DNA from: Escherichia coli O127:H6 str. E2348/69
GTDB lineage: Bacteria; Pseudomonadota; Gammaproteobacteria; Enterobacterales; Enterobacteriaceae
Length of the DNA: 64,000 nt
Assembly (NCBI RefSeq): GCF_000026545.1
Contig: NC_011601.1
Reading direction: 5' to 3' (one strand)
Positions 30,437 to 34,607 of the stretch are shown piece after piece. The translations under genes and the position numbers were made by a program. The notes under the pieces are model-generated. The model made no database searches. It was not told where the DNA came from and saw only the letters and a list, made by a program, of their open reading frames with translations. Each line of letters starts with the position of its first letter. The stretch's first letter is position 1.

Positions 30437-31986
30437 CTGTCTCTTATACACAAATCCCCACCCGGGGATTTGTGATGTCTGTCAGTCTGCTTTAGGGGGA
30501 CTCTTTCCATCCGGTAGTTTCCTTCCTCCCCGGCAGCGATTTTTTGAACTTTTTCCTCACCCGTTGATCTTCTCTTATATTTCATTTTCTTCGGGTCTGT
30601 TATGGTACTTTCTGATTGTTATTCATGGGCTAACGAGCAGTTTGGACATGCCCGTCTCGGTGATCCGCGTCGTACACGACGCCTTGTGTCACTGGCCTCT
30701 TCTCTCGCTCAGCATGCAGGTCTTTCTATTGTGAAATCATCCCAGTCCACTGCTCAGGTTGAAGGTGCGTACCGCCTGATACGTAACCCGTCTGTGTCCC
30801 CGCAAGCCATTGCCGAAGCCGGATTTACCGCCACTGTAAGGGCATGTGAGGCTCATCCGCTGCTCCTCGCGCTGGAAGACACCACCACCATTAACTTCAG
30901 TCACAGTACGGCATCTGATGACCTGGGGAATACCACCACTAACCCGAAGACGCGCGGGCTGCTGGCTCACTCTGTCCTGATGTACGCCCCCGACAGCGCC
31001 CTGCCAGTCGGTCTTATCGAACAGCAGCGCTGGAGTCGTGCCACGGACACCTACGGTGTTAAGCACCAGCGAAAAGAACGTCCCTATGAAGAAAAAGAAA
31101 GTTACCGCTGGCAGCAGGCTTCGGAGCGCATGGCCGAACGGCTGGGGGAGATACAGAAACGGGTAATCACTGTCTGTGACCGGGAAGCGGATATCTGGCA
31201 TTACCTGCATTATAAAGTCAGCCACGGGCAGCGCTTCGTGGTGCGTGCAGCACAGAATCGCCGGCTGGAAGAAGCACCCGGCAAGCTCTTCGAACTGCCG
31301 GAAGTCCTGGCAACCGCGGGAAGCCACACGCTGAATGTGATGCAAAAAGGCGGGCGGGCAGCCCGCCAGGCCCGGATGTTCATCAGTTACAGCGAAGTCA
31401 GCATAAAAAATCCCGACAACAGCGGCCAGGCGCTCCCGCTCACGTATGTCTGTTGCCGGGAGCAGGCAGAGGACGGCGCCTGCTGGCATCTGCTGACGTC
31501 AGAAAAAGTGGCGAGTGCCGCCGATGCGCGACGTATCGTCAGCCATTACGAGCGACGCTGGCTGATAGAGGAATACCACAAGGCGTGGAAAAGTGGTGGT
31601 ACATGTGTGGAATCGCTGCGAATGCAGACCCGGGATAACCTCGAGCGCATGGTGGTTATCAAGGCGTTTATCGCGGTGCGGGTGCTGGGCCTGCGGCAGG
31701 GCGGTATCAGTGAAGAAACACAAAATGACAGCTGTGAGAAAATACTGACGCCGACAGAGTGGAAACTGCTGTGGGTTAAGCTGGAAGGAAAACCGCTTCC
31801 GTCACAGATGCCGACACTGAAATGGGCCTGTCTGAAACTGGCGAAACTGGGGCGATGGCATGACAGCAAACGCACCGGTCGCCCCGGTTGGGTAGTCATG
31901 TGGGATGGCTGGTTCAGACTTCAGGATATGGTTGAGGGTTACCTGGTGATGAAGTCTCTTGATCAGGAGATCTGATCAAGAGACAG
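30437..31986 (+). mobile_element. IS4-family IS50(Tn5)-like insertion sequence, copy 2 (1550 bp)
   Basis: Same termini as copy 1; perfect 9-bp target duplication agctaggct at 30428..30436 and 31987..31995. Confidence 0.88.
30602..31975 (+). CDS. IS4-family DDE transposase (Tn5 Tnp-like)
   Basis: Identical 457-aa protein to copy 1. Confidence 0.88.
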   Translation: MVLSDCYSWANEQFGHARLGDPRRTRRLVSLASSLAQHAGLSIVKSSQSTAQVEGAYRLIRNPSVSPQAIAEAGFTATVRACEAHPLLLALEDTTTINFSHSTASDDLGNTTTNPKTRGLLAHSVLMYAPDSALPVGLIEQQRWSRATDTYGVKHQRKERPYEEKESYRWQQASERMAERLGEIQKRVITVCDREADIWHYLHYKVSHGQRFVVRAAQNRRLEEAPGKLFELPEVLATAGSHTLNVMQKGGRAARQARMFISYSEVSIKNPDNSGQALPLTYVCCREQAEDGACWHLLTSEKVASAADARRIVSHYERRWLIEEYHKAWKSGGTCVESLRMQTRDNLERMVVIKAFIAVRVLGLRQGGISEETQNDSCEKILTPTEWKLLWVKLEGKPLPSQMPTLKWACLKLAKLGRWHDSKRTGRPGWVVMWDGWFRLQDMVEGYLVMKSLDQEI

Positions 31987-32112
31987 AGCTAGGCTGGGGG
32001 TTCCGGAAAGCTTTCAGCTTTGAGCCAGTTATTAAAACCCCTTTTGATTTGTTAAAACACCTTGCGGTCTGGCAACTGCAAGTGTCAAACAAGAAATCAA
32101 AAGGGGGTCCCA

Positions 32113-32571
32113 ATGGGGAACGAAAAGAGCTTAGCGCACACCCGATGGAACTGTAAATATCACATAGTATTTGCGCCAAAATACCGAAGACAGGTGTTCT
32201 ACAGAGAGAAGCGTAGAGCAATAGGCTGTATTTTGAGAAAGCTGTGTGAGTGGAAAAGTGTACGGATTCTGGAAGCTGAATGCTGTGCAGATCATATCCA
32301 TATGCTTGTGGAGATCCCGCCCAAAATGAGCGTATCCGGCTTTATGGGATATCTGAAAGGGAAAAGCAGTCTGATGCTTTACGAGCAGTTTGGTGATTTG
32401 AAATTCAAGTACAGGAACAGGGAGTTCTGGTGCAGAGGGTATTACGTCGATACGGTGGGTAAGAACACGGCGAAGATACAGGATTACATAAAGCACCAGC
32501 TTGAAGAGGATAAAATGGGAGAGCAGTTATCGATTCCCTATCCGGGCAGCCCGTTTACGGGCCGTAAGTAA
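32113..32571 (+). CDS. tnpA: IS200-family transposase TnpA (Y1 HuH)
   Basis: Identical to copy 1 TnpA. Confidence 0.85.
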   Translation: MGNEKSLAHTRWNCKYHIVFAPKYRRQVFYREKRRAIGCILRKLCEWKSVRILEAECCADHIHMLVEIPPKMSVSGFMGYLKGKSSLMLYEQFGDLKFKYRNREFWCRGYYVDTVGKNTAKIQDYIKHQLEEDKMGEQLSIPYPGSPFTGRK

Positions 32572-32722
32572 CGAAGTTGGATGCAAATGTCAGATCGTGT
32601 GCGCCTGTTAGGGCGCGGCTGGTAAGAGAGCCTTATAGGCGCATTTGAAAAACCTCCGGCTATGCCGGAGGATATTTATTGAATAATACTATTTCGACTG
32701 AAATAACAGGTAAGGATACAAA

Positions 32723-33151
32723 ATGGGTTCATGGGGAATGGAGGCTCTCGAAAGCGACGAAGGGCTGGATTTGATTAATTGGGTAGAGGAACAACTGCAA
32801 GATGATTCGACCTTTGATGCCGAGTCAATTGTTCAACGCTTAAGCCAGCATGAAGATTTGTTCGGATTTCAGGGAGATGAAGAATTTCTCTACGATAATA
32901 ATGTTATCGGTCTCGTTGAACTTATCATTCAAAAAGCAGCCGGGAAAAAAATCACATCGAGTAAACAAATTGATCAACTCGACGGTTATCAGCTCACGTC
33001 GACTTTCAGCAAAAAACTCCAGGGCCGTTTACAAACAATCGACGACACACATGAGTGGATAATGCTTTTCGAGGGGCGAGCACGCGAAAAAGCAAAAGCA
33101 TATCTGATTGAGCTTACTGATAAATTAAGAGTAGTAAAGACAACAGCCTGA
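32723..33151 (+). CDS. Hypothetical acidic protein (142 aa), function unknown
   Basis: Intact ORF with downstream hairpin terminator; no family recognised by inspection. Confidence 0.5.
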   Translation: MGSWGMEALESDEGLDLINWVEEQLQDDSTFDAESIVQRLSQHEDLFGFQGDEEFLYDNNVIGLVELIIQKAAGKKITSSKQIDQLDGYQLTSTFSKKLQGRLQTIDDTHEWIMLFEGRAREKAKAYLIELTDKLRVVKTTA

Positions 33152-33242
33152 ATGACAAACAAGGGCGCGCAAAATTAAGAATCTGCGCCCTTTCAAAGCC
33201 CGACAGGCGTAGCGCATCAGGCGATTTAGCGTCTGCCATCAG

Positions 33243-33662
33243 TCAAAGAAACCATTCCGGCTTAACGCCAAATCGGGCTGAAAGTGCCTTAATGTGGGAT
33301 ATCGTCAGGGATCGTTGTCCAGATAAAATCTGACTGACCAGGGATTTAGAGCCGATTTCGTTCTTCAAATCCGCATAGGTCAGATTATGTTGATCAATCA
33401 GCGTACGAAGTAACGCCACGCCAACCGACATTGCTGCAACGGCTTTGTCGAACTCTGCAAACTTTTCGTTATTGTTTTCATATTCTGCAATGCGGCTCGC
33501 CAGAAAGTCGATAAGTGGATTGGTGTCATCTTCTTCAATCAAATATTCGACCAGTTCCAGTGCTTCACGATAATCATCTTCTGAGTCACTGCCTCCCAGA
33601 AAGGGGACTGCATTGACCAGTTCTCTTGTTGCTTTAACAGCGCGTGCAGCATTAGCAGTCAT
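33243..33662 (-). CDS. higA: HigA-like antitoxin (HTH, Xre family)
   Basis: 139 aa; resembles K-12 HigA as recalled (AVPFLGG, ALELVEYL, IGSKSLVSQILSGQRSLT, FGV); start overlaps toxin stop. Confidence 0.75.
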   Translation of the reverse strand: MTANAARAVKATRELVNAVPFLGGSDSEDDYREALELVEYLIEEDDTNPLIDFLASRIAEYENNNEKFAEFDKAVAAMSVGVALLRTLIDQHNLTYADLKNEIGSKSLVSQILSGQRSLTISHIKALSARFGVKPEWFL

Positions 33663-33970
33663 TCTTTGTTCTCTCTGTAGTAACGTGTCAGTTTGTCATA
33701 CTCTGCGTGATTCGTGATGTGCTTCACAAAGAACCGCTTATTAACAAAGTTTATGTAGGCAATAACCCTAAGATTGTTCCCGCCGACATCCAGAACGTAC
33801 CATTTGTTGCGATATTTAAAATTGTCGAGGTTGGGAAAAGCCGTTCGCATTTCTTCTGGCGTAGAAAAATCCGTTTCCTTAATAACCCGATACAATGAGT
33901 GTAGAGCCAGAGCGTCGTTAGGATATTTGCGCGCACACTCTTCAAATGGCGCTTTCGAAATGATGTGCAT
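33659..33970 (-). CDS. higB: HigB-like mRNA interferase toxin (RelE/ParE superfamily)
   Basis: 104 aa from internal Met with SD aggaag; FPNLDNFKY...YVLDVGGNNLRV...HAEYD resembles K-12 HigB as recalled. Confidence 0.75.
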   Translation of the reverse strand: MHIISKAPFEECARKYPNDALALHSLYRVIKETDFSTPEEMRTAFPNLDNFKYRNKWYVLDVGGNNLRVIAYINFVNKRFFVKHITNHAEYDKLTRYYRENKE

Positions 33971-34136
33971 TTTAACTTCCTTATTAGCGCCTGAATGACT
34001 AAACCTGGACAACCATTCCTTGGGATTTATTTTTCTATAGTAGTTGATCACACGGGTGTTCACAATATGTAAACACCCGTCTACACGTCACAATAGCACG
34101 TCCAAATTCCAAAACGTGAACATGTTTGTCTACGAA

Positions 34137-34607
34137 CTACTCTTCTTCCGCCGCTAACTGCGCGAAGCCGCCATTTCCTTCCCAGCCTTCCAGCCGCTGA
34201 TACACCGTTTCCACCGCATCTTTAATCTGCTGAGTCATCGGGTAGTAAAAGCCGACGATATCCGGCTGGATGCCAAGGAAAATCACTTCGCCAATATCTT
34301 CTTTCAACTGGTCGATAAGATAGTTCAGCGGCATGTTATGGGTAGTCATCATAAACATCTCGGCGATGTCAGCCGGGTCGATGATGCGGATCTCGCTAGG
34401 GTTTAGCCCCATATCCGTGGCGTCGACAATAAGCAGCCGTGTCGGGCGCAGTTCGCGGATAGCGACAATGTCGTTTTCCGGTGCGCTACCGCCGTCAATC
34501 ACTACCCAGTTACCTTTCGGCGCGGCAGCGCACTTTTCCGCCAGTAGCGGGCCTGCGCCATCATCGCCCATCATGCTATTGCCAACACAGAGTAAAACGT
34601 CAGTCAC
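34137..34607 (-). CDS. hycI: Hydrogenase 3 maturation protease HycI
   Basis: 156 aa, HycI sequence by recall. Confidence 0.93.
   Translation of the reverse strand: MTDVLLCVGNSMMGDDGAGPLLAEKCAAAPKGNWVVIDGGSAPENDIVAIRELRPTRLLIVDATDMGLNPSEIRIIDPADIAEMFMMTTHNMPLNYLIDQLKEDIGEVIFLGIQPDIVGFYYPMTQQIKDAVETVYQRLEGWEGNGGFAQLAAEEE

Follow-up and report, generated by a model that had tools for sequence, protein, structure and literature searches.

The hycI-higB intergenic region of Escherichia coli O127:H6 strain E2348/69 carries a near-perfect palindrome, and we propose that its inner 17 bp are the operator through which the HigA antitoxin autorepresses the higBA operon. We put the probability of this reading at about 0.85. 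It draws on the conservation of the motif across genera, its fixed offsets to higB, the conservation of HigA's helix-turn-helix (HTH), the family identity of the two genes and the analogy with the higBA operon of K-12; from these we infer both binding by HigA and repression. The site is very probably the ordinary autoregulatory operator of a type II toxin-antitoxin (TA) operon, which is the usual arrangement for such gene pairs. An earlier note on the 64-kb stretch of DNA analyzed here (the window) had also proposed a HigA operator, but had defined it by its perfect 9-bp arms. Comparison with other strains and genera supported the function and changed the definition: because EC195-type strains of E. 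coli share only the core, and because strain variants leave the inner 16 bp intact, we take the 17 bp of the core as the conserved unit and exclude six outer bases of each arm. The features discussed below are listed in the table.

Coordinates of the palindrome, the proposed operator, the predicted promoter elements and the neighboring genes in the window
Feature	Position	Strand	Basis or remark
Conserved core, proposed HigA operator of O1 type: GTTTACA-TAT-TGTGAAC	34058..34074	-	exact match to GTTYACANNNTGTRAAC
Full near-perfect palindrome	34052..34080		repeat search, shuffle controls
Outer left arm extension ACGGGT	34052..34057		lineage-specific, outside the conserved operator; absent from the EC195 type and other genera
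Outer right arm extension ACCCGT (plus strand)	34075..34080		lineage-specific; absent from the EC195 type
Isolated half-site-like repeat TATTGTGAC	34088..34096	-	direct repeat; the 8-mer recurs 28 bp downstream, in the operator
Predicted -35 hexamer TTGTGA, within the right operator half-site	34060..34065	-	positional homology to orthologues
Predicted -10 hexamer TACTAT	34037..34042	-	15 nt after the core; place of TATAGT/TATAAT in the EC195 type and orthologues
Shine-Dalgarno-like AAGGAAG	33976..33982	-	5 nt upstream of the higB ATG
higB, toxin, 103 aa, RelE-like HigB_toxin family	33659..33970	-	PF09907, E 3.8e-23; RefSeq WP_000547555.1
higA, antitoxin, 139 aa, C-terminal HTH_3 at residues 85-138	33243..33662	-	PF01381, E 2.1e-9; WP_000126295.1
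hycI, last gene of the hyc operon	34137..34607	-	PF01750; K-12 homology ends at about 34135

On the plus strand the palindrome reads ACGGGTGTTCACAATATGTAAACACCCGT. Both the sequence and a repeat search confirmed an inverted repeat with perfect 9-bp arms between hycI and higB, ACGGGTGTT at 34052-34060 and AACACCCGT at 34072-34080. The hyphenation in the earlier note (9-12-8) was off by one base, the true spacing being 11 nt. In full, the repeat search returned 13-nt arms (34052-34064 and 34068-34080) around a 3-nt centre; they contain one mismatch and are 92% complementary. The distance from the palindrome to the higB ATG (33970, minus strand) is 82 bp, and the site spans 82-110 bp upstream of the gene. 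Its other end lies 56 nt downstream of the hycI stop codon (34137-34139).

Chance expectations were obtained from 100 dinucleotide shuffles of the whole window and 5000 shuffles of the 166-bp intergenic region. A single 9-bp inverted repeat in 64 kb is unremarkable, since shuffled windows contained a mean of 3.7 perfect repeats of at least 9 bp with a loop of at most 15 nt. For 13-nt arms with one mismatch the mean was 0.22 per shuffled window. When the intergenic region was shuffled, a 9-bp repeat appeared in 47 of the 5000 sequences and a 13-nt one-mismatch repeat in 3. Past the shared 8-bp arms, five further bases on each side are perfectly complementary, which would occur by chance about once in 1000. 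The operator model gives no account of these five extra bases, and they remain unexplained.

Sequences resembling single half-sites were also seen nearby. The 8-mer TCACAATA is present twice, 28 bp apart, and no left half matching the isolated half-site TATTGTGAC was found in the sequence adjoining 34088-34096. Another half-site-like sequence, GTTCACG, lies on the minus strand at 34113-34120, upstream of the operator. These isolated half-sites may be remnants of an earlier operator, or they may serve as weak auxiliary sites.

The gene order on the minus strand is hycI, the 166-bp spacer, higB and higA, with the higA ATG overlapping the higB stop codon (ATGA). RefSeq names the two products "type II toxin-antitoxin system HigB family toxin" and "helix-turn-helix domain-containing protein", and a search of NCBIfam gave no family for HigB or HigA. 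HigA matches chain B of PDB entry 5IFG (E 3.5e-34), and its only solved relatives are the K-12-type and Shigella-type structures 5IFG and 5YCL. The antitoxin is encoded 400 bp downstream of the proposed operator.

The core is composed of two 7-bp half-sites and a 3-bp spacer, which places the half-site centres 10 bp apart, about one helical turn, and suits an HTH dimer. In the proposed mechanism, a dimer of HigA, either by itself or in complex with HigB, would set one C-terminal HTH on each half-site. The predicted -35 hexamer is separated by 17 nt from the predicted -10 hexamer; at the same place orthologues have TTGTAA, 17 nt before TATAGT or TATAAT. Each of the two predicted hexamers matches the consensus at 4 of 6 positions, and a consensus promoter scan called no promoter on the minus strand. 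As the hexamers are weak and escaped the scan, the promoter is to be regarded as putative, and so is the transcription start of higBA that we place near 34030 on the minus strand. Since the right half-site contains the predicted -35 hexamer, HigA bound there would block RNA polymerase over the -35 region and repress higBA, and the operon would be derepressed when HigA is lost.

We also compared the loci of other genera. A scan of one genome per species returned 17 related loci, 10 of which have an intact higB and a HigA 74-81% identical to that of E2348/69; they belong to Leclercia, three Mangrovibacter species, Citrobacter, Phytobacter, Yokenella, Kluyvera, Pluralibacter and another enterobacterium. 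Protein look-ups gave four further orthologues, in Salmonella, Cronobacter, Pantoea and Morganella (HigA 71-78% identical). All 14 orthologous loci with intact higB have an exact GTTYACA-TAW-TGTRAAC upstream of higB. In most of them one site, O1 (GTTYACATATTGTAAAC), starts at -73 from the higB ATG and is followed by 15 nt and then by TATAGT or TATAAT, while another, O2 (GTTYACATAATGTAAAC), comes directly after the -10 box and starts at -35. Because Cronobacter and Pantoea have an exact match at O2 only and none at O1, the -35-proximal site is not universal. A multiple alignment of the upstream regions showed conservation of the O1, -10 and O2 blocks alone, the remaining DNA being unalignable.

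In the window, the pattern GTTYACANNNTGTRAAC matched only at the core, even when two mismatches were allowed, and across the loci fetched before the viral scan described below, every match with at most one mismatch lay upstream of higB. The HTH region EIGSKSLVSQILSGQRSLTI.HIKALSARFG is nearly invariant among the orthologues, E2348/69 included, and the alignment showed that K-12 HigA differs from it at several positions. The higBA operons of other Enterobacterales resemble that of E. coli in HigA (71-81% identical overall), in a near-identical HTH, in the motif and in the 15-nt distance from O1 to the -10 box. They differ in having the second site, O2, directly behind the -10 box, and their leader measures about 40 nt. 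In E. coli the leader is longer, at about 60 nt, and the -10 box (TACTAT) is weaker.

The genomic contexts of the orthologous higBA operons are unrelated to one another: some are prophage-like, others lie by Tn3 or by various housekeeping genes. The Salmonella operon adjoins a phage holin-like gene and DUF6864, and that of Morganella a Tn3-family transposase and an HNH gene. As these two contexts are mobile, they suggest that the higBA module moves horizontally together with its operators. We also came across a 1.6-kb contig binned as a Collinsella MAG, on which a truncated higB accompanies the gene for a HigA that shares 99% identity with that of E. coli; it is probably a misbinned E. coli contig.

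A collection of viral contigs was then scanned for the 17-mer pattern without reference to genes, and tblastn was used to identify the neighbors. The scan yielded 66 loci with an exact match, which by our rough estimate is about background for a 17-mer. At seven of them the match lies directly beside a higBA homologue, and these seven comprise all three loci with double matches, each pair spaced 38 bp, and four with single matches. In six of the seven the match is found 28-74 bp upstream of the higB start (28, 35/73, 36, 36/74 and 73 bp); in the seventh, higB is N-terminally truncated.

The HigBA system of K-12 (ygjNM) is among the closest known. Its operon is transcribed from one promoter, whose start site has been mapped and which HigA represses, so that autoregulation was demonstrated experimentally (PMC2814082). 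According to Jadhav 2020, as cited in a review (PMC11869752), binding to the operator is equal for HigA and the HigBA complex. The K-12 proteins are 46% (HigA) and 39% (HigB) identical to those of E2348/69 and belong to the same families; higB likewise comes first, the genes have the same ATGA overlap, and HigA has a C-terminal HTH_3. The K-12 promoter similarly carries two 7-3-7 palindromes, CCGTTGCCA-ATC-TGGCAACGG, then TATCAT, then ATTGCCA-ATT-TGTCAAC. These two sites are 29 bp apart, whereas E2348/69 has one, and the K-12 operon occupies a different chromosomal locus. The K-12 half-site differs from that of E2348/69 at two central positions (GTT-GC-CA versus GTT-TA-CA), a difference that goes with substitutions in the recognition region of HigA (SMVSRVLSGKRK in K-12, SLVSQILSGQRS in E2348/69).

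SehAB of Salmonella Typhimurium is another HigBA-like system, in which the antitoxin SehB combines a dimerisation domain at the N-terminus with an HTH at the C-terminus. In EMSA, SehB shifts a fragment of its own promoter, and mutations in the HTH abolish the shift (PMC7160566). A paper that is marked retracted (PMC3868539) describes a pair of palindromes covering the -35 and -10 boxes, and we take this description as a lead only. SehB is a separate paralogue of 142 aa with another N-terminus, as judged from published primers. The Salmonella homologues that we retrieved are the orthologue of E2348/69 higBA and not SehB. In Proteus vulgaris (Rts1), a dimer of the HTH antitoxin HigA binds inverted repeats O1 and O2 that overlap the promoter of a toxin-first operon (cited in PMC7160566). 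The logic is the same as that proposed for E2348/69, while the HigB/HigA sequence type and the operator sequence probably differ.

Within E. coli, the E2348-type region was found in 343 of 5426 complete genomes, at exactly one place per genome and never on a plasmid. Positions 34040-34092 are identical in 333 of the 343. Three variant strains could be read through the region and together show four palindrome substitutions. Each of these falls either in an outer arm or on the outermost base of the core, and the inner 16 bp are free of them. In isolate 362 the change is a G>A of the left outer arm (ACGGGT, 34052-34057). In N96 it is a C>T of the outer arm that is the right one in the minus-strand reading (34052-34057 in plus-strand coordinates). 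WL297 has two C>T changes, one in that same right outer arm (minus-strand reading, 34052-34057 on the plus strand) and one at the outermost core base.

In EC195-type strains the higBA coding region is 97.7% identical to that of the window, but the sequence upstream is otherwise unrelated: the only block common to the two upstream regions is a 19-bp core (GTGTTTACATATTGTGAAC), together with 17 bp of weaker similarity toward the -10 region, and sequence comparison detected no significant homology between the two types beyond the core. In the EC195 type the G+C-rich outer arms ACGGGT/ACCCGT are replaced by other sequence, and TATAGT occupies the -10 position. The outer six bases on each side belong to a single E. 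coli variant of the region and are probably needless for binding.

Of the second site, the EC195 type retains a degraded left half, the right half-site (TGTAAAC) being deleted; O2 reads CACATAATGTAAACGGATGGAAC in other genera and CACATAAGGATAGAAC in the EC195 type, which appears to have lost exactly the right half-site. The E2348 type has no recognisable O2 and keeps the single -35-proximal site. The loss or degradation of O2 fits a locus that is eroding in E. coli, and the chromosomal higBA of this species fits a decaying copy with a single operator. Without O2, repression in E. coli might be weaker or organised differently.

The palindrome lies within the accessory higBA segment and not within the core DNA of hycI: K-12 and most E. 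coli match the window only from about 34135 onward, and in K-12 the DNA after hycI is unrelated and continues into a hairpin shared with ascB. The hycI-ascB junction is empty in K-12, holds a hypothetical ORF of 253 aa plus higBA in the EC195/Shigella type, and has higBA directly after hycI in the E2348 type. In several forms, including AVS0528 and Escherichia sp. E2661, higA is kept while higB and the promoter are gone. K-12 itself keeps the last bases of the 253-aa ORF (GGGGTGAACCAG) fused to sequence downstream of higA, as if by deletion. The idea that the palindrome is the ancestral 3' flank of hycI was rejected, as the match to K-12 ends with the hycI stop codon, and the spacer of K-12 has nothing in common with this one except for the remnant of the 253-aa ORF. 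On the other side of higBA, E2348/69 is without the ascGFB operon, which in K-12 lies between hydN and hycI. Its place (30500-33200 in the window) is taken by an ISEc13 transposase, the tnpA of IS200C (32062-32571) and a DUF4259 gene (32723-33151).

Could the palindrome act as RNA, instead of or besides binding a protein as DNA? In transcripts that read out of hycI, a 13-bp hairpin might terminate the hyc mRNA, make it more stable, or shield higBA against read-through, and we regard such a role as unlikely. The minus-strand RNA does fold into a hairpin of 13 pairs at -21.3 kcal/mol (z = -6.4 against shuffles), the DNA mismatch becoming a U-G pair, and the plus-strand hairpin is weaker (-15.2 kcal/mol). 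The loop of the hairpin, however, is merely 3 nt. Three of the four polymorphisms are C>U on the minus strand and keep G-U pairing; against this, C>T is in any case the most frequent kind of mutation, a test would need more than four events, and the G>A of isolate 362 breaks one pair. The arm extension exists only in the variant that has hycI directly upstream, where there is no other terminator between hycI and higB. In the EC195 type and the other genera, which are without the extension, the hairpin has at most 7 pairs and, at -6.6 kcal/mol (z = -0.6), is no better than shuffles.

The suggestion of the earlier note that the repeat could instead be a terminator for hycI found no support. Although a G+C-rich stem-loop is present, it is followed by GUGAUCAACUAC, with no U-tract immediately 3', and we rejected it as an intrinsic terminator; the absence of a T-run, which the note had itself remarked on, was seen on both strands. 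A terminator scan called none on either strand, and the sequence downstream of hycI in K-12 is unrelated. A search of 33600-34500 against the covariance models of Rfam likewise returned no known RNA family at E ≤1. It is conceivable, if doubtful, that the 13-bp extension of the E2348 type was selected for dual use, serving as HigA operator in the DNA and as a hairpin at the 3' end of the hyc transcript in the RNA. If so, the hairpin and a HigA roadblock would uncouple the toxin operon from formate-induced read-through of hyc, the hydrogenase operon that ends 56 nt upstream.

A neutral origin has also to be considered, in which the repeat is a functionless chance or mutational quasi-palindrome, perfected for example by hairpin template switching. 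About four perfect 9-bp inverted repeats are expected by chance in a 64-kb window, the outer arms are conserved only within one E. coli lineage, and the E. coli locus is decaying, with higB deleted in many strains and the second operator lost. Yet the probability of such a repeat arising by chance in the 166-bp spacer is 0.001-0.01, and many genera conserve the inner 17 bp, always equally far from higB, without conserving the flanks. Chance can account for the outer arm extension only and not for the core, so that as an explanation of the whole site it is very improbable. For the outer arms taken by themselves, perfection by template switching is as plausible as a role at the RNA level. Least credible of all, to the point that we give it almost no weight, is a binding site for a different regulator or a mobile-element end. 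IS200/IS605 ends carry hairpins, and IS200C and ISEc13 lie 1.5-3 kb from the palindrome; but the motif accompanies higBA into unrelated contexts that have neither element, and a dispersed repeat (REP) or IS end is excluded because the sequence is single-copy, with one place per genome in the 343 genomes, none on plasmids, and one motif match in the window. The TGTGA and TCACA pentamers resemble CRP half-sites, but they are spaced by 3 nt and not 6 nt, and the wrong spacing excludes a CRP-type site.

The autoregulatory HigA operator is therefore the reading that we retain for the inner 17 bp. Searches of the open full-text literature for exact stretches of the motif as text found no papers, and neither did a search of the open literature for higB together with hycI. 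The finding leaves the understanding of type II TA autoregulation unchanged. It would be of use for annotation and for work on TA regulation in EPEC and phylogroup B2 strains, and it provides a candidate operator motif, GTTYACA-N3-TGTRAAC, for a widespread uncharacterised HigBA subgroup of the Enterobacterales.
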